From a virus: DNA of 16,901 bases. Made by a program: the position numbers and the translations under genes. Shown here in pieces: positions 1-16,901 of this stretch. The stretch lies in IMG/VR virus record IMGVR_UViG_3300035703_000557; one strand, 5' to 3'. The first letter of the stretch is position 1; each line of letters starts with the position of its first letter. Below the pieces are notes generated by a model. The model had not been told where the DNA came from, ran no database searches, and saw only the letters and a program-made list of their open reading frames with translations.

Positions 1-1491
1 CAGCGGTGCCGGATGCTCAAGTTCGAGCTCCTGCCTTGGCAGGTGCACGCGGCGACGGTGCTGATGGCCCGCCGGCGGGCGGACGACGGCACCCCGGCTA
101 CGCGCTACGCCCTGTGGGTGGTCGCCCGCGGGGCAGGGAAGACGGGCCTCGTCACGGCCCTCCTCGAGTGGATGCTGTGGGAGGGGACCGACCTCGAGGT
201 GTGCTGCGTCGCCACCCAGCAAGACAAGGCGAACATCATCCACGGGCGCATCCAGAAGATGCACCGCGGGGAGGATCGGTGGCGGTTTGTCGGCGGGGGC
301 GGTGCCACCAGCATCGGCCTGATCGAGCACAAGAAGGCGACGCTCAAGGCCATGCCGTGCACGGACAACGCCATGGACGGCATCACCCCGCGGCTGGTGA
401 TCGCGGACGAGGCCGCCCGCATGGACGCCGCAATCCTGCGGGCCATGTCTAGCGTCACCAAGACCCGCACGGGGCAGATGCTGTTCATCACGACCCCCGA
501 CCGGGACCAAAAGACCCGCGAGCTGTGGCCCTACTGGGAGGCCTGCGAGATCGCCCTTGACCAGGACGAGGCCCTGCCCGAAGGGTGGTGGGCGCTGCTG
601 TGGGGCATGGACCCGACCGACGAACCCGACTCCGACCTTGCGGTGCACCACGCCAACCCGTCTGCCGGCGTGCTGATCTCCGTCCGGGACATCCGGACCA
701 AGATTCAGAACGCGCTGAAAACGGCGGACCCAAAGGCCCGGGAGGAGACCTGGCTGCAGGAGCTGGCCACGTTCACCGACGACCTCGCCGGTGCGCTTCC
801 CCTCGAGCTGCTGGACCGCATCTCGGTGGATACCGATTGGGAGATGCTGGAGGGGGCACCCGGCGTGGTGGCGGTGGACTTCAGCCAGGGCGGGTTCTTC
901 TCGGGGTCGCAGTGCGACCTCACCAGCATGTGCGTCGCAGTGTGGGATGGCAGCAAGGTGCACACCCGCGGCTACCACTGGTGGGCCGGCGCGGACATGG
1001 CGCACGACGAGCGGCGCACCCGGCAGCCGCTGGCGCGGTGGGTGCAGGACGGGCACCTGAGCGTGTCCGGGCCGACCATCGACTTTGACGCCGTCGAGGC
1101 CCGCTTGGTCGACGTCTGCCGCCGGTACGACGTCAAAGCGTTCGTCGCCGACCCAGTGGGCAAGGCGTCCGCCTGGGCCGCGCAGATGGAACGCAAGCAC
1201 GGGTGGCGCTGGCACAAGGCCCCGCAGACCATCGTGTGGATGGGCGGCGGGTGGGCCATATGGCAGAACTGGGTGCGTTCCGAGCAACTACGCTGCAAGC
1301 CTGACCCGGTGCTGCGGAGCTGCCTGGCGTCTGCCCGTCTCTACGTGGGCCTCACGGGGCTTGCCATGCCGGTCAAGCAGCGCAGCACCAGCAACATCGA
1401 CGCAGTCACCGCGCAGGTCATGGCCGCCCGTGTCCTGCACGACCTCGAGATCATGGGCGGCAGCATGTACGAATCCCAGCCGGGATTCTGA
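1..1491 (+). CDS. terL: Terminase large subunit, C-terminal 496 codons; the gene starts at about 16541 and crosses the circular junction
   Basis: The frame is open from base 1, so Met at 13 is internal. It carries LLPWQ, a Walker A-like VARGAGKTG and a Walker B-like RLVIADEAARM, which matches Terminase_1-type large subunits. The upstream 78 codons sit in the same frame at 16541-16774. Stop codon is 1489-1491. Confidence 0.9.
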   Translation, partial: QRCRMLKFELLPWQVHAATVLMARRRADDGTPATRYALWVVARGAGKTGLVTALLEWMLWEGTDLEVCCVATQQDKANIIHGRIQKMHRGEDRWRFVGGGGATSIGLIEHKKATLKAMPCTDNAMDGITPRLVIADEAARMDAAILRAMSSVTKTRTGQMLFITTPDRDQKTRELWPYWEACEIALDQDEALPEGWWALLWGMDPTDEPDSDLAVHHANPSAGVLISVRDIRTKIQNALKTADPKAREETWLQELATFTDDLAGALPLELLDRISVDTDWEMLEGAPGVVAVDFSQGGFFSGSQCDLTSMCVAVWDGSKVHTRGYHWWAGADMAHDERRTRQPLARWVQDGHLSVSGPTIDFDAVEARLVDVCRRYDVKAFVADPVGKASAWAAQMERKHGWRWHKAPQTIVWMGGGWAIWQNWVRSEQLRCKPDPVLRSCLASARLYVGLTGLAMPVKQRSTSNIDAVTAQVMAARVLHDLEIMGGSMYESQPGF

Positions 1492-2072: not shown

Positions 2073-3275
2073 GTGTACTCACATGACCTTGATCAGCGCG
2101 GACACCATGCGCAGCATGGTGCCGTGTCGATCTGGTCCCAGTTCATGCGCTGGTTTTGGCCCACACAGATGGTGTGGTTCAGTGCTTCCGGCGCACGGCA
2201 CCTGAATGCGGACCTGCTCGGCGTGCCCGCGATCATGCGGGCGATCTCGCTCATCTCGACGGACTCGGCGAGGCTGGACATGGTCGTCCACCGTCGCGAC
2301 GGATCGGTGGTGGCCGATTCGCCCGCGCTGACCCTCCTCGAAGGCGAGACCGCCTCACTGCTCTCGGGATTCGAGCTGCGGCGCTGGCTCGCCTCGTCCG
2401 CGCTGACCTACGGAAACGGGTTCCTGTGGATCCGCCGCGATACCGGCACGGGTGAGCCGGTCGCGCTGGACCCCGTCGACCCGACCGTCGTCAGCGTCCG
2501 ACTCGAGGCCGGCGAGGCCGTCTACGTCGTGCACGACAAGGTCGTGGACGACAGCAACCTGGTGCACGTCCGGGCCTTCCCGGATCCCACCTCGCCCTGG
2601 CTCGGCGTTTCGCCGATCACCCAGTGCCGCCGCGTGCTCTCCACGCAGGCCATCATCGACCAGGTCGCCGAGGAGCTGGCCAAGACCGGCTACGTCGGGA
2701 AGCTCGGCATCGAGCACCCCGGCCCGCTGACCGCCAACGCCCGCAATCAGATGCGGGAGAAGTGGCTTGAGCAGCACCACGGCGGCGAGAAGATCGCGTC
2801 GCCCGCGTTCTTCGGCGAAGGCATGAAGGCTGCGCAGCTGGCCGCCGACGCGGCAGGCCGGCTGCTCGACGCCAAGCGGCACGGGGTTGAGGACGTGGCG
2901 CGTGCCTTCGGCATGCCGCCGCAGCTTCTGTACCAGGGCGAAGGGCGCAGCCAGCCCGAGACGGCGCAGGCGTACGTCACGCACTGCCTTGCACCGTTCG
3001 TGGCCGGCATTGACAGGGAGCTCACGCGAAAGCTGCTTCCGCCCGGCCAGATGCTGCACACGGACCTCACCCCGATCACCATCGGCGACTTCCGCACGGC
3101 CGGCCGCGCCTACGCGCAGCTCGTCCAGGTGGGGGTGCTCGCCCCCAACGACGCACGCCGCCGCATGGGCCTCGAGCCGTGGCCCGGACTCGACGAGCCG
3201 AAGCCCGTGATCTCGGGCGTCGACCCCAATCAGAACAACCAGCAGGACGAGGAGCCCGCCGATGCAGCAGCTTGA
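2073..3275 (+). CDS. Portal protein, HK97 family
   Basis: 400-aa ORF directly after the terminase region. SGxxxNADLLGVPAIMRAISLISTDSARLDMVVHRR and NGFLWIRRD look like Phage_portal (HK97-type). Position before the protease/capsid gene fits. The start is uncertain: GTG 2073 or in-frame starts about 50-70 nt downstream. Confidence 0.85.
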   Translation: MYSHDLDQRGHHAQHGAVSIWSQFMRWFWPTQMVWFSASGARHLNADLLGVPAIMRAISLISTDSARLDMVVHRRDGSVVADSPALTLLEGETASLLSGFELRRWLASSALTYGNGFLWIRRDTGTGEPVALDPVDPTVVSVRLEAGEAVYVVHDKVVDDSNLVHVRAFPDPTSPWLGVSPITQCRRVLSTQAIIDQVAEELAKTGYVGKLGIEHPGPLTANARNQMREKWLEQHHGGEKIASPAFFGEGMKAAQLAADAAGRLLDAKRHGVEDVARAFGMPPQLLYQGEGRSQPETAQAYVTHCLAPFVAGIDRELTRKLLPPGQMLHTDLTPITIGDFRTAGRAYAQLVQVGVLAPNDARRRMGLEPWPGLDEPKPVISGVDPNQNNQQDEEPADAAA

Positions 3276-5001
3276 GGTCCGCACCGCGGCCATCGGCGGC
3301 GTCGAAGGCCGCACCCTGACCGGCTACGCCGCGCTCTACAACACGTGGAGCAAGCCGCTGATAAGCATGAAGGGGGAGTTCCGGGAGCAGATCGCCCCTG
3401 GTGCGTTCTCCGGCCAGACGGACAACGTCTCGCTGTTCTACATGCACGACTCGAAGCAGGTGCTCGCGAACACCAAGAGCGGCACGCTGGTGCTCGAGAG
3501 CGACGACAAGGGACTGCGATACACGGCCACGCTCGGGGAGAACACCCGAGACGAGGCGGTGCTTGACCAGGTCCGTCGCGGCCTGCTCACGGAGATGAGC
3601 TTCGGCTTCCGCGTCCCGGAAGGCGGAGACAGCTGGAAGGGACGCGACCGCACGCTGAAGCGTGTGGAGCTCAGGGAAGTGAGCGTCGTCGAGGTCGGTG
3701 CCTACAGCGGCACCTCCGCCGAGGCGCGACAGGAAACGCAACCAACACCACGGAAGGCACCAACAGTCATGGTCAGCAATCTCACGCTCCGCGAAGTCCG
3801 CACCAAGCTCACCGAGCTTGAGCAGCGCAAGTCCGACACCAACCTCTCCGAGGACGCCCGCGCCGACATCGGCTGCGAGATCGAGGAGCTGCGCGAGATC
3901 CGCAAGACGCTGCTCGAGCGTGACGCGGGCGTGCAGGTGGCGGCGACCCCGGCGCGGCGCACCGAGGAGCGGCGCGAGGCGGCCGCCGAGTGGCGCTCGT
4001 CGCGTGAGTACGAGTCGTCCTGGCGCGGCTGGCTGCGCGGCGGCCCGGCCCCCGAGCAGCGCGAGATCATCTCGACGGCCTCGTCGTCGATCCTGATCCC
4101 GAAGCAGACCGAGGAGCAGATCCTCAAGTACATCTCGGCCGAGTCCATCGCCCAGCGTGTGTGCGACTTCCGCACCGTCCGCCAGGGCGACGCCACGCTG
4201 CGCTGGAACACGCTGGAGTCGACCCAGTACACCAACGCCTGGAGCCCGCCGGACACCGGCACGACGGCGGCCACGGACATCGACCCCGGCTTCGCCGAGG
4301 TGTCGCTGAAGCCGCTGCCCATCCTGCCCAAGACGCAGGTGTCGGAGCAGCTGATCAAGTCCGCCAACTTCGACGTCGAGGCGGAGGTCATGGACAACCT
4401 GATGCGGCAGTTCGCCAAGATGAGCGAGGCCGGCTTCATGGCGGGGGTCACGAACGGCCCGAGCAACGCGCTGTTCACCGTCCAGACGGGCACCAACATC
4501 ACCACCGCGACCTCGACGGGCACCAGCCGTGCGCTCGCCGTCACCGCGGCGGCCACCGTCGCCAACCTGATGGACATGCGCTACACGCAGCTCCCCGCGG
4601 CGTACTGGGGCTCTGCGTCGTGGATCCTGCCGAAGGACGTCTACGCCAAGATCGCCGACATCCGCGCCGCGCCGACGGGCAGCAACGTGCCCATCTTCGT
4701 GCCGAGCTCGGACGCCGGCCTGACGCAGGGCGCCAGCGGGTTCCTGCTCGGCCTGCCGGTGTACGTCACGGACTTCCTGCCGACGCACGTTTCGACGGCG
4801 TCCACGGGCAAGAACTGCCTGGCGCTCCTGGGCAACTTCCGAGACAGCTACGCCATCCGGTCGTGGGAAGGCATGACGATGCGGCGTGACGACCTCACCG
4901 CCGCCAACTCGGCCCGCATCGTGTTCCGCGGCTTCGGCTGGGCCAACGCGGCGTTCACCCGCGCCAAGGCCATGGTGCAGCTGCAGGTCACGAACGCCTG
5001 A
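3262..5001 (+). CDS. Prohead protease - delta (scaffold-like) - HK97-fold major capsid protein, fused in a single ORF
   Basis: Residues 1-150 look like an HK97 gp4-type prohead protease. Candidate catalytic residues are His62 (LFYMHD) and Ser113 (LTEMSFGF), spaced as in HK97 gp4. Residues about 170-250 are charged coiled coil (LTELEQRKSD...EIEELREIRKTLLERD). Residues about 260-579 resemble an HK97-type capsid protein. There is no stop anywhere between these parts. Confidence 0.85.
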   Translation: MQQLEVRTAAIGGVEGRTLTGYAALYNTWSKPLISMKGEFREQIAPGAFSGQTDNVSLFYMHDSKQVLANTKSGTLVLESDDKGLRYTATLGENTRDEAVLDQVRRGLLTEMSFGFRVPEGGDSWKGRDRTLKRVELREVSVVEVGAYSGTSAEARQETQPTPRKAPTVMVSNLTLREVRTKLTELEQRKSDTNLSEDARADIGCEIEELREIRKTLLERDAGVQVAATPARRTEERREAAAEWRSSREYESSWRGWLRGGPAPEQREIISTASSSILIPKQTEEQILKYISAESIAQRVCDFRTVRQGDATLRWNTLESTQYTNAWSPPDTGTTAATDIDPGFAEVSLKPLPILPKTQVSEQLIKSANFDVEAEVMDNLMRQFAKMSEAGFMAGVTNGPSNALFTVQTGTNITTATSTGTSRALAVTAAATVANLMDMRYTQLPAAYWGSASWILPKDVYAKIADIRAAPTGSNVPIFVPSSDAGLTQGASGFLLGLPVYVTDFLPTHVSTASTGKNCLALLGNFRDSYAIRSWEGMTMRRDDLTAANSARIVFRGFGWANAAFTRAKAMVQLQVTNA

Positions 5002-8215: not shown

Positions 8216-9135
8216 TGGGCTGGATACTCACTGGTCCCAAGGCCGAGACCTTCTCGCAGACCCGGGTCATGCCCGGGTCCGAGCACCAGTTCGAGCTGGT
8301 GTACGACGTCCAGTGGGTGCCGGACGGAACAAATCTGACGTTCCCGGCGGATGGGAACGACCAGCTGTTTGCCGTCGCGGGGCTGCCCAAGGTGCGCGAC
8401 CGCGTGCCGTCGGCGTTCCGGAACACTTCGCTGTACATGCGGGCGTACGTCTGCCGGCAGGTGCAGGCGTTCCCACGACCGGAAGGCCTGTACCAGTGGG
8501 AGGTCCGGTGCACCTTCGGCACCCTGCAGGTCACCGTTGCCGACGAGCAGGCCAAGTACGTCGCCGTCACCCGGCAGAGCGGGGTCCGCCAGGCGCAGGT
8601 GTGGCGGCTCGCGCCGACCTTCCCGGCCAACGGCAGCGTCACTTGGCCGACCGGAGTCGTCGACGTTGCGGGCACAAAGGTCGACCTCAATGGCAATCCG
8701 CCGGCCTACGAGGTGCCGCAGATGACCATCACGGTCGAAGTCCTGTGGGACCGGACGGCGGGCACTCCGGTCAATGCCGAGCCGCCCACGTCGACCTGGT
8801 CGACCTACGTCGGCAAGCGCAACGACGCGGCCTTCCTCGGCTGCGCCATCGGATCGCTGGTGTACCGGGGCTTCTCGGTGTCCCCACACCATGAGTGGTA
8901 CCGCATCCAGCACACGTTCCTGTGGGACGAGTGGTTCCACCTGGAGCAGGTGCCCGGGCCGATCCCGACCGGTGCACCCGCATGCACGACGGGCGTCACC
9001 GTGGCCGGCCTGGTCGTCCTGCAGGCCGACAAGGTCGTGTGGTTTCAGAAGTACCAGACGCTTGCCAACTTCAACAACATCGTCACCGCCCTCGAGCTGG
9101 CGGAGCTGACCGCACCAAAGCCCGCAGCAGTATGA
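8215..9135 (+). CDS. Minor tail protein (distal tail/baseplate position, 306 aa)
   Basis: TGATG overlap with the tape-measure candidate. Strong third-position GC. No motif recognised, so the call is positional only. Confidence 0.4.
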   Translation: MGWILTGPKAETFSQTRVMPGSEHQFELVYDVQWVPDGTNLTFPADGNDQLFAVAGLPKVRDRVPSAFRNTSLYMRAYVCRQVQAFPRPEGLYQWEVRCTFGTLQVTVADEQAKYVAVTRQSGVRQAQVWRLAPTFPANGSVTWPTGVVDVAGTKVDLNGNPPAYEVPQMTITVEVLWDRTAGTPVNAEPPTSTWSTYVGKRNDAAFLGCAIGSLVYRGFSVSPHHEWYRIQHTFLWDEWFHLEQVPGPIPTGAPACTTGVTVAGLVVLQADKVVWFQKYQTLANFNNIVTALELAELTAPKPAAV

Positions 9136-9659
9136 GCTGGCAGCGCCCCATTTTCGGACGCGGGATCCCTGGTGCCAACCGCGCCGTCGTGAACACGTGG
9201 ATGCGCGGCGCGTCGTCTGCCCTGGACAACGCCGACGTGATGCGGTGGGGCAGGGCGCAGATGGCCGCAGGGAACGTGGTGTCGCTTGGGCTGTGCAAGG
9301 TGAAATCCGCATTCCTCATCAGCCCCAACCGGTGGTCATACACCGTCGAGCACTGGTTCCCGCCGCCGCTGACCGGCTCGGGCATTACGCCGCCGTCCGA
9401 CCTCACGTTCAGCTACTCGAACGTGCAGAACCTGCGCGAATACCACAACACCGCGACGCGGGTGGACGGCATGGACATCACCAACCCGGCGGTCATCGTG
9501 GCCCCGGTCGGAAGCGTCTGGAACGGCACCGGCTTCGGACCCGTCGAGGGCGAGCTCAAGGCCAAGGTCAACGTCTACGTGGTCTACGCGACGGATGGTT
9601 CCGCGTGGCCGTACTTCGATCGCCCCAACCCGGTCGCTTGCGACACGGTGGAGTCATAG
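9132..9659 (+). CDS. Minor tail protein (175 aa)
   Basis: ATGA overlap at 9132-9135. The ORF track's longer version starting at 8895 lies inside the previous gene. Positional call only. Confidence 0.4.
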   Translation: MSWQRPIFGRGIPGANRAVVNTWMRGASSALDNADVMRWGRAQMAAGNVVSLGLCKVKSAFLISPNRWSYTVEHWFPPPLTGSGITPPSDLTFSYSNVQNLREYHNTATRVDGMDITNPAVIVAPVGSVWNGTGFGPVEGELKAKVNVYVVYATDGSAWPYFDRPNPVACDTVES

Positions 9660-9663
9660 CCCC

Positions 9664-10011
9664 ATGCCAAACGCAAGAATCGCCAGCGACATCGTCGGAC
9701 TCGTCATCGTGCCTGGCTGCAGCCGAGACCTGACGGTCGACGTGCAGAATCCAAACGGCACCCCGTTCGACCTGACCGGATACAGCGTCAAGGCCAAGGT
9801 CGAGCTCGGAACGGTCGAGACGACAATCACGGGGACGATCTCCAGCGCAGCTGGAGGCAATTCGAACGTCGTGATCCCGGCGTCGACCACCACGGATTGG
9901 CCCGCTGCCACCAACGGGGTGGTCACGCTGTACGCCGACCCGTCCGCGGGCAGCGAGAACGTGCACATTGCCACTGTCCTGTTCCGTACCTCCGCGGAGG
10001 TGGTCCCGTGA
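9664..10011 (+). CDS. Small tail protein with an Ig-like (BppU-N-like) sequence pattern (115 aa)
   Basis: The ATG at 9664 is 5 nt after the previous stop. DLTGYSVKAKVELG...ITGTIS...VVIPASTTTDW...GVVTLYAD resembles phage Ig-like baseplate domains. Confidence 0.35.
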   Translation: MPNARIASDIVGLVIVPGCSRDLTVDVQNPNGTPFDLTGYSVKAKVELGTVETTITGTISSAAGGNSNVVIPASTTTDWPAATNGVVTLYADPSAGSENVHIATVLFRTSAEVVP

Positions 10012-11618
10012 TTCGGTCGTTTCTTAGGAAAGGTGCAGTTTCCAAGGAAGCCGACTGCCTCGCCACCGCCGAGCCCAACCAGCCGGGCGGCCTGACCGCC
10101 ACGGCCGTAAGCACGACCACGATCTCGTTGTCTTGGACGGCCGACAGCACGGCCGCGCCTAACGAGGCGACCTCCTACGCGGTTGAGAGGTCCATCGACG
10201 GCCTCGGGTCGTGGAGCACCATCGCGACGAACCTCACATCGCCCTCGTACTCGGATGCGTCGCTGTCTGCATCGCAGACGCGGTACTACCGCGTGTCGGC
10301 GTACAACTGCTTCGGCGGTAGCCTCGCCAGCGCGACGGCGAACGCGACCACTCAGGCAGGCGGCCTATCCCCGTCTTGGTCGTTGGACTTCAGCAGCGGC
10401 ACCCCAAGCGGCTACACGCTTACCCGCGCCAGCAGCGGCACCTACCTGGACTCCTCGGGCTACGTCGCTTCGGCGGCCTCGGACATCGCCCGACTGACCC
10501 ACGACAGCAGCGGCACGAGGCTCGGGCTTCTTGTGGAGGAAAGCAGGACGAACGAGGTGACGCAAAGCGCGGACCTCTCCACCACGTGGATCCGCGACGG
10601 AATCCAGGCGTTCGGATCCGGAAGTACCGCAAACGCTGCAACGGCGCCCGACAACACGACGACCGCAGACCTCGTTACGGAAACAACTGTTTCGGGCCGC
10701 CACGGCGTGTATTCAAACGCCAATGGTTTCAATCTTCCATTTAACACGCAGTACACGATTTCCATCTATGCAAAGAAGCCAGCGACAAATGGCCGCGATC
10801 ACGTGTCGGTCGGTGTCAGCTTCGGTTCTGGAAATGGAATCGTCGTATTCGATGTCGTAAACGGCACCTACACGGGCAACAATGGATGGGGCGGCGGCAC
10901 CTTGCACGGCTACGGCATTTCTGCGGCCGGGAACGGGTGGTACCGGTGCACCGTTACCTTCAGTTTCTCTGGCACCGGCAACGCAACTACGGGATCGGTG
11001 CGGGTGGGCCCGGCGATCTCTACCGCAACCAACTCGTTTGGCCTCCCTGCTTACCAAGGGAACGGCACATCTGGCATCCTGTTGTGGGGTGCTCAGATGG
11101 AAACGGGGTCCAGCGCGACGGCGTACATCCCGACGACGACGGCAACAGTTACCCGTAGCGCAGACCTCGCCCACGTCCTGGACTCGTCCATCACCTCCTG
11201 GGGCGACCCCGGTGCCGTGGTCGTCCAGTTCTACCCGCCTGGCAAGGCCGGGACGCTCTTGTCCACCGACGATGCGGCTACCGCGCAGGTGGGCATCGAA
11301 GCCAGCAGCACGACTGCGGCGCGGGCGTTCTGGTCATCGGGCAACACCGCTACGGGAACCATCGGCACCGGAGTGCAGAAGGCCGTCCACTACTGGAACG
11401 GCAGCACGTCGAAGTTCTGCATCAACGGCGGCACGGTGCAGAGCGGCACGAACAACCTGACCATCGCGAACACCGACTTTGTCACGCTCGGCGCCGAGGC
11501 CACAGAAAGCAGCGGGGTGCCGGGGACGTTCTCGCAGTACGCAAACTGCGTGATCCGTAAGGTCGAGTTCTACAGCGGCACCCTGACCGACGCGAACCTC
11601 CAGACGATCACCACATGA
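10008..11618 (+). CDS. Tail fiber / receptor-binding protein: FN3 domain plus ConA-like (LamG/CBM-type) jelly-roll domains
   Basis: GTGA overlap start. Residues about 24-115 are FN3-like (GGLTATAVSTTTISLSWTA...SYAVERS...YYRVSAYN). They are followed by LLVEESRTNEV..S.DL...W, NGWYRCTVTF and LLWGAQMETGSSATAYIPTTTATVTRSADL, which is typical of phage carbohydrate-binding fiber modules. GC is lower around 10700-10900. Confidence 0.6.
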   Translation: MIRSFLRKGAVSKEADCLATAEPNQPGGLTATAVSTTTISLSWTADSTAAPNEATSYAVERSIDGLGSWSTIATNLTSPSYSDASLSASQTRYYRVSAYNCFGGSLASATANATTQAGGLSPSWSLDFSSGTPSGYTLTRASSGTYLDSSGYVASAASDIARLTHDSSGTRLGLLVEESRTNEVTQSADLSTTWIRDGIQAFGSGSTANAATAPDNTTTADLVTETTVSGRHGVYSNANGFNLPFNTQYTISIYAKKPATNGRDHVSVGVSFGSGNGIVVFDVVNGTYTGNNGWGGGTLHGYGISAAGNGWYRCTVTFSFSGTGNATTGSVRVGPAISTATNSFGLPAYQGNGTSGILLWGAQMETGSSATAYIPTTTATVTRSADLAHVLDSSITSWGDPGAVVVQFYPPGKAGTLLSTDDAATAQVGIEASSTTAARAFWSSGNTATGTIGTGVQKAVHYWNGSTSKFCINGGTVQSGTNNLTIANTDFVTLGAEATESSGVPGTFSQYANCVIRKVEFYSGTLTDANLQTITT

Positions 11619-11902
11619 TGCACGACTACCGCCTCCGCTTCCCGACCCGCGCCATGGCCGAGGCGACCCTTGCCGTGGCCGGCATCCCCAACGGTTTTAG
11701 CACCGACTACTCGGTCGATCACATCGGGCCGATCACCATCGAGCCGGCCGTGATGGACGGCGACGAGGAGCTGGTCCCGGCCGTGATCGACGCCGGGCAC
11801 CACGTGAACCTCCGCAGCCGGCAGGAGCTGACCGAGGACCAGCTGGAGCCGCTGGTCGAGGCCATGGTCTTCCCCGTCAACCCGAAGCGCGTCTGGTCAT
11901 GA
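11615..11902 (+). CDS. Hypothetical protein (95 aa)
   Basis: ATGA overlaps at both ends and high GC3. It sits downstream of the fiber gene, so a fiber-assembly role is possible but unsupported. Confidence 0.5.
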   Translation: MMHDYRLRFPTRAMAEATLAVAGIPNGFSTDYSVDHIGPITIEPAVMDGDEELVPAVIDAGHHVNLRSRQELTEDQLEPLVEAMVFPVNPKRVWS

Positions 11903-12192
11903 AGGCCGCCGTCGCCATCCTCGCGCTGTCCAGCTGCTCGGCCACCGCGACCATCGCGGAGGAGACGAACGCCGTGCGGCTCCGTGCCACCAGCGCACAG
12001 AAGCACATGGCCGTCGTGCAGGCCGACCTTGAGGCCATCCAAGTGGCGGCCGCCGAGGTCCACGCCGCTCTCCCAGGCGCCGAGGACCGCGACTCCCAGC
12101 TGCTCACGACAATCCAGTACGTCTTCATCGGCGGTGGCGTCATGGCCGTTTGCGCGACCGTGTATTGGCTCATCAACAAGGCAAAGAAATGA
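11899..12192 (+). CDS. Putative lipoprotein with a C-terminal transmembrane anchor (97 aa; u-spanin-like topology)
   Basis: N-terminal MKAAVAILALSSC gives a signal-like hydrophobic stretch plus an L-S-S-C lipobox. The C-terminal LLTTIQYVFIGGGVMAVCATVYWLI is followed by NKAKK. The middle is a helical, soluble 60 aa or so. Confidence 0.5.
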   Translation: MKAAVAILALSSCSATATIAEETNAVRLRATSAQKHMAVVQADLEAIQVAAAEVHAALPGAEDRDSQLLTTIQYVFIGGGVMAVCATVYWLINKAKK

Positions 12193-12329
12193 CCACCGAC
12201 CAGGCATCCATCCTGCTGTTCATCACGCTTGCCGTCGCGTTCCTCTCAGGCTGCACCGTGGGTGCGACCTGGAAGGGCGCCCGCACCTCCAACAAGAAGA
12301 AGGTTCGCCATGCCGCTGCTCGCTGACGC
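12189..12329 (+). CDS. Small membrane/lipobox protein (46 aa)
   Basis: Below the ORF-track cutoff. ATGA overlap at 12189-12192. Translation: MTTDQASILLFITLAVAFLSGCTVGATWKGARTSNKKKVRHAAAR. It has one hydrophobic helix ending in an L-S-G-C lipobox and a basic tail. GC3 is about 82%. Confidence 0.45.
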
Positions 12330-12420
12330 CTCGTCATTCCTCGGCTCCCTCTGGTTCGCGCTGCTGCTCGGCTGCATCGGCGTCGGCTTTGGGTTCTGGT
12401 ACTGCCGGAAGTCGAAGTGA
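12310..12420 (+). CDS. Small single-TM peptide (36 aa), holin- or toxin-like
   Basis: The ATG at 12310 has GAAGG about 7 nt upstream. Translation: MPLLADASSFLGSLWFALLLGCIGVGFGFWYCRKSK. GC3 is about 92%. It overlaps the previous ORF by 20 nt. Confidence 0.45.
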   Translation: MPLLADASSFLGSLWFALLLGCIGVGFGFWYCRKSK

Positions 12421-13307
12421 TCAGGCGGTGCTGCTGCGGCGGTGGATCGCAACAGGAGGGGAACTCCGAGTGCGTTCCGCTGTGCACTGGCACCAACGTC
12501 TACAACTTCACCATCGCGCTGTCGCACGAAGGGTGGTCTCGCGGGACTCCGGGAACGGAGAGTGACTTTGAGCAGCCGGCGAGCTGTGCGCCTGGTTGCT
12601 GCGGCGGCCGGTACAAAGAGGTCCGCAAGCGAGAGAACGTCGTCGGAAAGTACACGGGACGTGCGCATGCTGATGGATTGTTTCCGAGCAGCGATCTGTG
12701 TGAATGCTGCAAGATCGATTCAGTGGACATCGTTACGCCAGCCGGCAGCTGGTCCGCAGACTTTGTCTACACGTACGCCACCAACACCATGGTGCGCAAC
12801 AACTACGTGGAGGACTTCAACTACACGAACAGTCTTACGGCGAAAATGTGGACGTGCGTGCTGCACCCGTCAAACGATTATTTCGACTGCCAGTGCGCTG
12901 GTCCGGCAGGGTTGTTTGACGTTCTCGAGATCAATGCTGGCGGCATCAATCTCGTCGACTTTGACTACAACGCGGGCGCTGGAAACTGCGGGTTAGACGG
13001 AACCAGCACGTATTTCTCCAATCACAACGTGAGGCTGTTCTACGTGAAGCCAGTGCCGTTCGCGACCTGTCGGACGCTTGCCGGGACGTACCGCCTCGCT
13101 TGCGCCCGGTACATCGTGCCATATACGCCGTGGGTGTATTGGGGTGCTTTCGGTGCCACTGAGTTGCTGTGCAGCTACCGAAAGTTCGTGAACACGGGCG
13201 GTAGCTGCTGGATCGAGGAGCTGGGCGACTGCTTCGCCAACGACCCGATCTACTCTTGCGGCCCTGACGCCGGTTTTAACGTCCCAAAGACGGTGGTGGT
13301 CACGTGA
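12417..13307 (+). CDS. Cysteine-rich protein of unknown function (296 aa, 21 Cys)
   Basis: GTGA overlap with the 36-aa peptide gene. The N-terminus is MIRRCCCGGGS, with further clusters CAPGCCGG, LCECC and DCQC. Codon third positions favour G/C, so it looks coding, but overall GC is only about 52% (31/60 by hand for 12781-12840). No family recognised. Confidence 0.6.
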   Translation: MIRRCCCGGGSQQEGNSECVPLCTGTNVYNFTIALSHEGWSRGTPGTESDFEQPASCAPGCCGGRYKEVRKRENVVGKYTGRAHADGLFPSSDLCECCKIDSVDIVTPAGSWSADFVYTYATNTMVRNNYVEDFNYTNSLTAKMWTCVLHPSNDYFDCQCAGPAGLFDVLEINAGGINLVDFDYNAGAGNCGLDGTSTYFSNHNVRLFYVKPVPFATCRTLAGTYRLACARYIVPYTPWVYWGAFGATELLCSYRKFVNTGGSCWIEELGDCFANDPIYSCGPDAGFNVPKTVVVT

Positions 13308-13618
13308 GGTACGTGGGCATCCAGGACAACCCGCACCTTCCGGAGGACGTCCGCCGTGACTTGGCCAGGCTCAGGGAGGCCCAAGGCCAGCCAGGCCTGG
13401 GCGACCTCGTCCAGGCGGCTACGACGGCTGCCGGCGTACAGCCGTGCGGGCGGTGCAAGCGCACCCGGGACGCCATGAACCGTCTGACGCCGTCCTGGGT
13501 GCGGCGTGCGCTATCGGCGCTTGGTCTTCGGCCGGCGGGTCGCAAGCCGGATCACCACGTACAGCACGATGGCGAACGGCAGGATCGGCAGGCACCAACT
13601 GACGGCCACCAGCCCTAG
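13304..13618 (+). CDS. Small CxxC protein (104 aa as an open frame; conserved-looking core ends near 13495)
   Basis: GTGA overlap start. GLGDLVQAATTAAGVQPCGRCKRTRDAMNRL has a CxxC motif and high GC3. After about 13500 the frame becomes low-complexity and is antisense to a better-looking minus-strand ORF. Confidence 0.45.
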   Translation: MRYVGIQDNPHLPEDVRRDLARLREAQGQPGLGDLVQAATTAAGVQPCGRCKRTRDAMNRLTPSWVRRALSALGLRPAGRKPDHHVQHDGERQDRQAPTDGHQP

Positions 13619-16044: not shown

Positions 16045-16175
16045 TTTCACCTAGGAAACGGCGTTTGGTGACGGATGTGACGCATGTGACGCTTTTTCTG
16101 AGTTACGCGCACACACGCGCACGCGCACACACGAGGTCATATGCGGTGACGCGTCACATGCGTCACCAGCGTCAC
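15991..16175. repeat. Iteron field: 7 direct GTGACG and 3 inverted CGTCAC copies (consensus about kGTGACGCwT)
   Basis: Direct copies start at 15991, 16001, 16012, 16068, 16077, 16086 and 16146. Inverted copies start at 16152, 16161 and 16170. Spacing within clusters is 9-11 bp. 16146-16157 is the perfect palindrome GTGACGCGTCAC. Confidence 0.8.
16104..16133. repeat. 30-nt perfectly alternating pyrimidine-purine tract containing a 13-nt direct repeat
   Basis: TACGCGCACACACGCGCACGCGCACACACG. ACGCGCACACACG occurs at 16105-16117 and again at 16121-16133. The tract is flanked by the iteron clusters and preceded by CTTTTTCTGAGT. Confidence 0.8.
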
Positions 16176-16205
16176 CCAGCCTCAGAGGAGGCAGGAAGGT
16201 GAACG

Positions 16206-16463
16206 ATGAAGCACTGGAAGTCTCCGTGGCCTCAAAGGGCCTCAGAAGCACGTGGGAAGCGGGCGTCCTATGGCGGCAGCTGGAGCCGCCTAAGCCTGAA
16301 GCTGCGGCAGAACAGCCCTCTGTGCCAGCGGTGCGGGATCAACCCAAGCGAGCAAGTGCACCACGTCGTGCCCGTCAGGGCCGATCCAAGGCTCAAGCTC
16401 GACCCACGGAATTGCCTGGTCCTGTGCCGCAGCTGCCACGAGGAGCTGGATCACCCGCGGTAG
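16206..16463 (+). CDS. HNH endonuclease
   Basis: GAAGG 6 nt upstream of the ATG. CQRCG...VHHVVPV...DPRNCLVLCRSCHEEL is a classic HNH/zinc-finger layout. Its position just upstream of the terminase matches HK97-like cos phages. Confidence 0.85.
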   Translation: MKHWKSPWPQRASEARGKRASYGGSWSRLSLKLRQNSPLCQRCGINPSEQVHHVVPVRADPRLKLDPRNCLVLCRSCHEELDHPR

Positions 16464-16540: not shown

Positions 16541-16901
16541 GTGGGGCCGCCAAGTACAGAGAACGTCGACAGCGGGGAAGCACCTACTTCACCCGGTGAA
16601 CCACCTGCTGCAGCGGCCGTCGACGTCTCGGATGCGTACGCCCGTGGGGTCATCGATGGCACCGTCGCCGCGCCGCGCCGGATCCGGGCCGCGTGCCGGC
16701 GGTACCTCGCCGAGCGGGCGGACCCCGCCGGCCACGGCGTTGCCTGGGACGCCTCCGAGCTCGAGCGGTTCCTGCAGCGGTGCCGGATGCTCAAGTTCGA
16801 GCTCCTGCCTTGGCAGGTGCACGCGGCGACGGTGCTGATGGCCCGCCGGCGGGCGGACGACGGCACCCCGGCTACGCGCTACGCCCTGTGGGTGGTCGCC
16901 C
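16541..16901 (+). CDS. terL: Terminase large subunit, N-terminal part; runs off the window end and continues at base 128
   Basis: The frame is continuous with 1-1491 through the 127-bp overlap. DAYARGVIDGTVAAPRRIRAACRRYLAER...WDASELERFLQRC is typical of TerL N-termini. GTG 16541 is the first plausible start and its SD is weak, so the start is uncertain. Total length would be about 574 aa. Confidence 0.75.
   Translation, partial: MGPPSTENVDSGEAPTSPGEPPAAAAVDVSDAYARGVIDGTVAAPRRIRAACRRYLAERADPAGHGVAWDASELERFLQRCRMLKFELLPWQVHAATVLMARRRADDGTPATRYALWVVA
16775..16901. repeat. Exact 127-bp duplicate of bases 1-127 (circular-contig end overlap)
   Basis: A base-by-base comparison of the two ends matches over all 127 nt. 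The reading frame is preserved across the join. Confidence 0.9.

Follow-up and report, generated by a model that had tools for sequence, protein, structure and literature searches.

Tail-fibre host-range cassettes, in which the fibre is encoded together with a cognate chaperone, are known from P2 (H/G), Mu (S/U), lambda (Stf/Tfa) and T4 (gp37/gp38). Canonical lysis cassettes, such as lambda S-R-Rz/Rz1, are built from a holin, an endolysin and a spanin (for example the T1 gp11 u-spanin), and such cassettes are known mosaics. Short tags on variable cargo are familiar from the T4 internal proteins, which join a short shared capsid-targeting sequence to hypervariable bodies, and from the cargo-loading peptides of encapsulins; polymorphic toxins are paired with immunity proteins; and receptor-masking or exclusion factors such as T5 Llp and phi80 Cor lie beside receptor-binding genes. 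Our study concerns a cysteine-rich gene in the IMG/VR virus record IMGVR_UViG_3300035703_000557, which was analysed over its whole length of 16,901 nt (the window). The 296-aa product of this gene opens with a short tag ending in three consecutive cysteines (CCC), and the gene is followed by a small partner gene whose product has a GLGD core. Our analysis tentatively suggests that the CCC gene is the variable component of an exchangeable host-specificity cassette, consisting of an envelope-binding body and a cognate GLGD partner, and that it is not a peptidoglycan hydrolase. The first-pass annotation, which listed three candidate roles for the protein (a novel lysin, a metal- or disulfide-stabilised secreted or virion protein, and a host-surface effector), overlooked this class of tagged, variable bodies with a cognate downstream partner.

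Using the GLGD protein as bait, 78 IMG/VR loci were recovered. A hidden Markov model of the target family matched only 24 of 90 loci, and in nearly all of the others the gene directly 5' of GLGD also encoded a cysteine-rich protein (263-610 aa, 11-53 Cys) with CCC after 4-9 residues. The tag variants included MRFFCCC, MRRGCCC, MSRRRCCC and ...AVSCCC, and the remainder of these proteins was without similarity to the target. CCC was placed 4-9 residues from the start in every full-length relative and in all 11 body families, and the CCC protein ended ≤260 nt 5' of GLGD in 82 locus records. The 64 unique complete CCC proteins fell into 11 families that were unlinked by BLAST, and hhalign linked only fam1, the family carried by the window, with fam9 (probability 60 %) and fam6 with fam8 (96 %); judged by sequence, there are apparently at least 9-11 unrelated body types. 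The families had only three features in common, namely the tag, a loose strand motif at the C-terminus ([GW][FW]-x-phi-P-x-[ST]-phi-x-phi) and an abundance of G, T, P, A, C, S and Y together with 1.6 % Lys, and the spacing of the cysteines differed between body families. The GC content of the CCC body was below that of the rest of the locus in 53 of the 64, and its GC content at third codon positions (GC3) was below that of the flanks. Representatives of the ten other families had no Pfam or PHROG match, no cultured phage carries any member of the class, and our literature searches found it undescribed. The largest family, fam0 (loci L055-L082), has proteins of 593-610 aa with 44-53 Cys on contigs of 20-36 kb, and its GLGD partner has an additional CxxC in the N-terminal segment.

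The 5' exchange junction was sharp. Here, a block of about 45-50 nt was near-identical between loci with flanks about 70 % identical, and identity was 33-47 % directly past the CCC codons. The exact 24-mer TGGTACTGCCGGAAGTCGAAGTGA was present in 32 IMG/VR contigs, where it was followed by 25 unique proteins from 6 unlinked body families. This block may serve as a 'boundary sequence' for recombination, or may contribute to translational coupling as well. Synonymous sites in 12394-12437 were conserved far more than those in the rest of the 36-aa peptide gene that ends there. The 3' exchange boundary was found within the partner gene: between body families the GLGD protein was wholly different over its first 20-50 residues, the core was generic, and in loci L015 and L096 near-identity to the window returned in the C-terminal tail. 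Clusters of the GLGD N-terminal segment corresponded one-to-one with body families, also across phage backbones (fam3 in 16-kb phages and a 43-kb contig; fam6 in L015, L049 and L062), and the GLGD core followed the backbone.

Replacement was clearest in the sister phage L015, whose backbone was 89-98 % identical to the window overall (primase 98 %, g69 96 %, g83 and g95 90 %), whereas the lipobox/transmembrane protein was 37 %, the transmembrane peptide 60 % and the GLGD protein 51 % identical, and similarity between its 485-aa CCC protein and the window body was undetectable. The whole block from g97 to GLGD had been replaced together. The window-type fibre was found with three different body families; in this comparison of fibres with CCC proteins the automatic selection of a large upstream open reading frame (ORF) was noisy, and the window-type fibre cluster alone is interpretable. 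As evolution within families was conservative, according to the ratios of non-synonymous to synonymous substitution (dN/dS) given below, the diversity of the bodies arises by replacement and not by fast point mutation.

The partner core, GLGDxVxxxTxxxGIxxCxxCxxRxxxLN, is a small domain that belongs to no Pfam family and also occurs outside the CCC clade (loci L091-L093), near the terminase of a Flavobacteriia phage (Nonlabens phage P12024S gp35, L092), in a 60-kb uncultured podovirus and in a prophage remnant of Planctomycetaceae. Its contexts in the Nonlabens phage and the podovirus are unrelated to the CCC module. The prophage remnant, in a Planctomycetaceae metagenome-assembled genome, was the partner gene's one genomic match; there a beta-rich protein, encoded after a tape measure and a distal-tail-like gene, comes directly before the GLGD protein. 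The upstream protein in this prophage is without CCC, and its GLGD protein has an extra C...CxxC...C.

The cysteine-rich frame is translated and under purifying selection, since codon-aligned comparisons with four relatives gave in-frame dN/dS values of 0.05, 0.11, 0.22 and 0.24, against proportional ratios (pN/pS) of 1.4-6.6 in the shifted frames of the same four alignments. This test ruled out a spurious ORF, and thus settled the possibility, raised at first pass, that conservation might show the frame to be untranslated. The extent of the ORF, its 21 cysteines (about 7 %) and the clusters MIRRCCCGGGS, CAPGCCGG, LCECC and DCQC had all been read exactly. Cysteine made up 7.09 % of the protein (21 of 296 residues; positions 5, 6, 7, 19, 23, 57, 61, 62, 95, 97, 98, 147, 158, 160, 191, 218, 229, 252, 264, 272 and 281), compared to a mean of 1.19 % in the other 22 called proteins of the window (binomial P = 1.3e-10). 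Counts of Asn (6.4 %), Tyr (5.7 %) and Phe (5.1 %) agreed with the earlier description of a beta-looking region rich in these residues, as did an all-beta AlphaFold2 model. Codon periodicity was good, as had been stated (GC content at the three codon positions of 0.51/0.51/0.75), and the GTG at 12417 does overlap the TGA (12418-12420) of the 36-aa peptide gene as GTGA. The local GC content of about 52 % was not reproduced: the ORF had a GC content of 59.0 %, with a lowest 150-nt block of 54.7 % and 57.6 % in 500-nt windows, and the whole window had 66.2 %.

Nor is the protein strictly the orphan it had been taken for. Seven relatives (61-99 % identity) came from an indexed search of 5.8 billion proteins, and 5 more (31-38 %) from an exhaustive phmmer search of 1.84 billion representatives, all of these approximately 12 relatives being metagenomic; a profile search of the 5.8 billion proteins added none past the first ones. 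A search of genomic contigs with the cysteine-rich profile returned zero matches and therefore no prophage copies. Invariance was scored on an alignment of 11 sequences, in which R42, G43, G77, C97, C147, C160, G165, Y209, K211, P212, V213, P214, F215, G223, Y225, C264, G286 and P290 were invariant. The alignment retained the N-terminal CCC, a GNxxCVP motif and the invariant KPVPF motif; the core cysteines were C97, C147, C160 and C264, with C61, C191 and C272 nearly invariant. No His, Glu or Ser was invariant, and D168 was near-invariant only.

The statement that no family was recognisable was borne out. The target and its 10 relatives had no match in Pfam or PHROGs, and a PDB profile search with the target gave 0 matches at E up to 10. 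The AlphaFold2 model, predicted from the family alignment, had a mean predicted local distance difference test (pLDDT) of 78.6 and a predicted template-modelling score of 0.77, with very long hairpin strands at residues 137-149, 166-184 and 195-212 and a disordered tag (residues 1-11, pLDDT <50). Foldseek searches of PDB and BFVD with this model were empty at E of 0.1 or better, and the best non-significant matches were the InvG secretin barrel (E = 0.33), leukocidins, CsgG and epsilon-toxin. The fam6 model was of low confidence (pLDDT 53.5); its top 20 Foldseek matches were all secretins, followed by beta-pore-forming toxins from rank 21, with a best E of 3e-3, a probability of up to 0.9 and a template-modelling score (TM-score) of about 0.18. 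Both a transmembrane segment and a signal peptide were absent from the 296-aa protein. A bacterial lipoprotein with the CCC tag as its lipobox was considered and rejected, as MIRR stands before CCC with no hydrophobic segment; most of the other CCC families have RFF, RRG or RRR ahead of the cysteines, which is not a lipobox.

Eleven kinds of occupant without an enzyme signature, independence from fibre and backbone, and near-universal presence in the clade together suggest that the body is a binding protein rather than an enzyme, and for this reason an envelope-specificity module with the GLGD protein as adaptor or chaperone is tentatively favoured. The composition of the bodies (G/T/P/A/C/S/Y-rich, 1.6 % Lys, all-beta) is typical of surface-exposed binding proteins, and the filling of the CCC slot in 82 locus records argues against an accessory moron. 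The place of the gene in the coupled late operon, and the tail-gene setting of the GLGD protein in the Planctomycetaceae prophage, also count in favour of this reading. The proposed cassette would have three parts: a constant tag of 4-9 often basic residues and then Cys-Cys-Cys; a cysteine-rich, beta-rich body of any type; and a small partner with a body-specific N-terminus of 20-50 residues and a common GLGD...CxxC core. Recombination at the junction of the peptide gene and the CCC codons and within the GLGD core would swap a body together with its cognate partner segment. The variable N-terminus of the partner, acting as cognate adaptor or chaperone, would recognise the body, and its core would connect the body with a conserved site, either on the virion or at the membrane. 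The body itself would bind a strain-variable structure of the host envelope. The CCC tag and the CxxC of the partner may share metal or thiol chemistry; such a role as a shared site is plausible, and the extra cysteines of the Planctomycetaceae GLGD protein are in line with it. Any metal or disulfide role for the cysteines of the body would likewise be part of this proposal. Both a disulfide- or metal-stabilised secreted or virion protein and a host-surface effector, as listed at first pass, are compatible with all of our findings.

Several observations weigh against a host-specificity cassette. Three predicted membrane or lipobox proteins are always found between the fibre and the CCC gene, and since a lipoprotein cannot form part of a virion, this neighbourhood has the look of a lysis or envelope cassette. 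Known fibre anchor domains are much longer than the constant part with its 7 or so residues, the AlphaFold2 model predicts a compact monomeric beta protein and no fibre, and a tail fibre is already present in the genome. The complete genome is without a recognisable endolysin, so an unrecognised product must carry out lysis, and the CCC gene occupies the usual endolysin position. Linkage between two recombination sites could alone produce the co-variation of partner N-terminus and body. Non-tag cysteines were even in number in 35 of 64 proteins, giving no sign that all are paired in disulfides, and the location of the CCC protein in the virion or envelope is one that we infer.

The leading alternative is a non-canonical lysis effector, that is, a soluble component of a lysis cassette which stands in for the endolysin and is released or activated once the membrane has been permeabilised by the holin-like 36-aa peptide. 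It would then act on the envelope as a new wall-degrading or disulfide-exchanging protein or as an oligomeric beta-pore former, with the GLGD protein as cognate inhibitor or tether up to that point. We regard this as a serious rival of rather low probability and rank it below the binder or adaptor model, with which it has the cassette logic in common and from which it differs in the site of action. The gene is GTGA-coupled right after the holin-like transmembrane peptide, with spanin-like lipobox/transmembrane proteins before it, in an order kept down to about 30 % identity, and the exchange of the g97-GLGD block as a unit in L015 would suit a mosaic lysis cassette. As had been remarked at first pass, the genome seems to be without a lysin: lysin families were absent from the Pfam and PHROG matches of the ORFs of the complete 16.8-kb genome, and no lysin was recognised among 20 products scanned from 20.7 kb of a 34-kb relative, although this is weak evidence in a lineage so remote from characterised phages. 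The best PDB matches of two unrelated bodies, to secretin barrels and beta-pore-forming toxins, are weak fold leads in the same direction; the TM-scores were however below 0.2 and the E values no better than 3e-3, one model of the pair was of low confidence, and the long strands have no clear alternation of the amphipathic, membrane type. With neither signal peptide nor transmembrane segment, the protein also lacks conserved catalytic residues. No endolysin domain (lysozyme GH19/24/25, SLT, amidase_2/3/5, CHAP/NlpC-P60, peptidase M15/M23) was found by Pfam or PHROGs in the target, its 10 relatives or the ten other family representatives, so that eleven body families contain zero known peptidoglycan-hydrolase domains; no endolysin catalytic set (Glu/Asp pair, Cys-His, Zn-binding His/Asp) was invariant in the 11-sequence alignment, and Foldseek found no muralytic-enzyme fold in PDB or BFVD for the target model. 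Bodies differ among phages with the same fibre and near-identical backbones, presumably with similar hosts, and a wall hydrolase has no obvious need for such exchange; the novel lysin proposed at first pass is therefore not supported as an enzyme. A more speculative version, which we hold to be improbable, makes the cassette a new envelope weapon that replaces the endolysin in minimal phages. In this version a non-enzymatic, host-strain-specific, cysteine-rich beta-protein would be held before lysis at the inner face of the membrane by a cysteine-metal or thiol clasp from the CCC tag to the GLGD CxxC, possibly including the Cys of the YCRKSK tail of the 36-aa peptide. Once released, it would breach a proteinaceous, disulfide-stabilised or unusual wall through an oligomeric beta-pore or thiol-disulfide exchange, in hosts such as Planctomycetota, and its hypervariability would be the outcome of an arms race with wall or surface proteins that are themselves variable.

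A protein acting at the surface of the infected cell or on its defences, whether by masking receptors or excluding superinfection in concert with the neighbouring lipoproteins or as tagged cargo with an anti-defence role, is a further explanation with limited probability, which we place below the lysis effector and slightly above the weapon. A short constant tag on unrelated bodies, exchange of bodies independent of fibre and backbone, predicted lipoproteins adjoining the gene, and a GC3 below the flanks with 53 of 64 bodies below the GC content of their locus, which suggests frequent horizontal replacement, would all fit such a protein. Exclusion and anti-defence genes are, however, usually accessory, whereas practically all members of the clade have this slot occupied; the large (263-610 aa), beta-rich and cysteine-rich bodies are unlike known injected or anti-defence proteins, the 296-aa protein has no export signal, and no homology to such systems was found in Pfam or PHROGs (the PADLOC library was not searched). 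Least probable of all, in our estimation, is a protein of the cytoplasm that binds metal or iron-sulfur clusters and has regulatory or redox functions unconnected with the envelope. The 21 cysteines with their CCC, CC, CxC and CxxxC motifs, the lack of a signal peptide and a cysteine parity without disulfide signal are what such a protein would show, but the cysteine spacing is unconserved between body families, no metal-binding family was matched, and an all-beta, low-Lys make-up rich in Thr, Gly, Pro, Asn and Tyr is atypical of metalloproteins in the cytoplasm.

The features of the module are listed in Table 1. The genes from 11615 to 13618 are linked throughout by ATGA/GTGA overlaps, the partner start is GTGA-coupled to the end of the CCC gene, and the CCC gene thus belongs to a late operon that is translationally coupled back to the tail-fibre gene, with g95 and the three membrane or lipobox genes in between. 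The coupling to a membrane-peptide cassette proposed at first pass was supported by these overlaps and by the order of genes in relatives. In L008 and L011, at about 30 % identity, a large tail protein is followed by a small transmembrane or coiled-coil protein, a lipobox and transmembrane protein, a 37-39-aa transmembrane peptide, the cysteine-rich protein and a protein of about 100 aa (GLGDxVxAATxAxGxxPCxxCxxRxxALN), after which the late genes end. The lipobox and transmembrane proteins of both loci are homologues of the 97-aa protein, and a neighbouring 87-aa protein in L008 had a weak Rz-like spanin PHROG match (E = 0.0015). Homologues of the 45-aa lipobox peptide were found in other loci, and homologous 36-39-aa peptides lie directly 5' of the CCC genes in most divergent loci. 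Positions 11899-12326 encode two predicted lipoproteins in tandem, the second of which would have a very basic mature part of about 24 residues (CTVGATWKGARTSNKKKVRHAAAR); such a cationic lipopeptide would be an unusual spanin. A frameshift or translational fusion of the 36-aa peptide to the cysteine-rich protein was rejected, as the two genes are some 40 nt apart in distant relatives and no slippery heptamer was found at the junction. Rfam and promoter/terminator scans of the module were empty.

Table 1. Features of the CCC module and its surroundings in the window
Feature	Coordinates	Strand	Remarks
Tail fibre/tail protein	10050..11618 (start approximate)	+	FN3 plus phrog_5939; upstream context of the CCC module
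97-aa protein	11899..12192	+	N-terminal lipobox ILALSSC and C-terminal transmembrane segment; unimolecular-spanin-like architecture
45-aa lipobox peptide, MTTDQASILLFITLAVAFLSGC...	12189..12326	+	Lipobox LSGC after a hydrophobic segment; putative lipoprotein, from sequence
36-aa single-transmembrane peptide, MPLLADASSFLGSLWFALLLGCIGVGFGFWYCRKSK	12310..12420	+	Hydropathy; basic C-terminus; candidate holin-like or membrane-anchor peptide
5' exchange junction	12394..12437	+	Block conserved at nucleotide level: end of 36-aa peptide gene, GTGA overlap, CCC codons
Constant N-terminal tag, M-I-R-R-C-C-C	12417..12437	+	GTG ATC AGG CGG TGC TGC TGC; shared CCC motif
CCC-tagged cysteine-rich variable protein, body family fam1	12417..13307	+	GTG start; 296 aa, 21 Cys
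Downstream partner, 104 aa	13304..13618	+	Variable N-terminal segment (about residues 1-30), then GLGDxVxAATxAxGxxPCGxCKxRxxAxNR core

An exact 127-bp terminal direct repeat (window 1-127 = 16775-16901) identifies the window as a complete genome of 16,774 bp, and all of its genes are on the plus strand. The gene order begins with HNH, the small terminase and TerL across the junction, followed by the portal, a protease-major-capsid fusion and connector proteins. It continues with a tube-like 130-aa protein, an Ala-rich 193-aa tape-measure-like protein and a 306-aa distal-tail candidate, and ends with the FN3-containing tail fibre, the CCC module, small regulators and a D5-type primase/helicase. 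The phage origin assumed at first pass was thereby established, with TerL, portal, protease-capsid fusion, tail protein and primase all identified. The capsid fusion is a single 579-aa ORF at 3262-5001, with head-maturation-protease residues 1-202 and major-capsid residues 175-575. An HNH endonuclease motif (CxxCG...HHVVP...CRSCH) at 16150-16400 and the circular junction lies just 5' of the terminase genes, a layout at genome ends that is typical of cos-type packaging modules. The tail-fibre ORF was called from 9897, and its true start is most likely past 10011; within 9135-10050 the Arg-rich mechanical ORF 9197-9733 (GC3 0.51) is unlikely to be real, and GC3 points to coding in the 8895-9659 frame up to about 9700 and then in 9595-10011. 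Between TerL and portal, a 113-aa ORF at 1503-1844 forms a second low-GC island (GC 54 %, GC3 0.59). Possibly a small mobile gene, it has a C-terminal motif (KWDCFG) similar to the one in a 129-aa early-region ORF of L002 (11926-12315, ...RRGWDCFETE).

Comparison by megablast and tblastn with 50,697 phage records found nothing similar to the window, and searches for host clues with the major capsid protein, portal, primase and fibre gave only remote matches scattered over several phyla. Many IMG/VR contigs of 15.4-18.3 kb belong to this clade, with dozens of genomes of about 16-17 kb, and the clade looks like a family of unusually small tailed phages. The phages carrying the CCC cassette are small aquatic tailed phages of about 16-17 kb, some being 20-43 kb.

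If our reading is true, very small tailed phages of a widespread and wholly uncultured clade have a compact 'plug-in' slot with sharp boundaries. Its 9-11 or more unrelated, structurally novel cysteine-rich proteins with matched partners would be a new source of host-interaction proteins and folds, and would represent a new rule for the tagging and swapping of modules and possibly a handle for engineering. Because the complete genomes have no recognisable endolysin, lysis by a 16.8-kb double-stranded DNA tailed phage is directly testable with five small genes. For annotation, a soluble unknown gene beside a holin-like gene should not be called an 'endolysin' from its position alone.

Compared to the canonical lysis cassette, the CCC module is alike in having a soluble product directly after a small basic-tailed transmembrane peptide and beside lipobox/transmembrane proteins, tightly coupled at the end of a late operon with no other lysin candidate recognised. 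It is unlike in having no lysozyme, amidase, peptidase or transglycosylase domain, fold or catalytic residues, and in its hypervariable, tagged slot. The likeness to tagged cargo and toxin/immunity systems is looser, and lies in a short constant terminal tag on unrelated proteins and a small cognate downstream gene that is co-exchanged. Here, however, the tag is a cysteine triplet without similarity to any such tag, toxin or immunity family, the bodies are beta- and cysteine-rich, and the slot is a core gene and not an accessory one; no Pfam domain for polymorphic toxin trafficking or toxin activity was found in any of the 11 families, and the architectural logic alone is common. Long twisted beta-hairpins are a feature that the models of CCC bodies have in common with secretins and beta-pore-forming toxins (InvG, GspD, leukocidins, epsilon-toxin), which were the top-ranked Foldseek matches of two unrelated bodies, but these matches were non-significant (E 0.33 for the target and 3e-3 for fam6; TM-score 0.19 or lower) with one model of low confidence, and the CCC protein has neither a Secretin Pfam domain (PF00263) nor a signal peptide. 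Three consecutive cysteines near the N-terminus of a membrane-associated viral protein are also found in the herpesvirus UL11-type motif, where they are acylated (PMC9205190). The resemblance of the CCC tag to this motif is analogy only, with no sequence relationship, the UL11 motif belonging to the eukaryotic palmitoylation machinery. To our knowledge, bacteria do not possess machinery of that type.

Tail-fibre cassettes differ from the CCC module in their folded anchor domain, in place of which there is only x3-8-CCC, and in their chaperones, as the GLGD partner is without similarity to the Tfa type. The CCC proteins have no domain or fold match to a fibre, beta-helix, spike or receptor-binding protein, are extremely cysteine-rich and are separated from the fibre gene by three membrane or lipobox genes. 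Nevertheless, both systems have a constant N-terminus and an exchangeable variable part, which in the CCC module means a sharp junction, 11 unlinked bodies and a constant part of only about 7 residues. In both, a small gene directly 3' has a co-exchanged, specificity-matched portion, a pattern that linkage alone could produce, and in both recombination takes place at conserved flanks, the genes lie in a late operon near tail genes, and unrelated variable parts are found in related phages. Novelty lies in the protein families and the CCC tag, and the logic of the system resembles that of known modular specificity cassettes.

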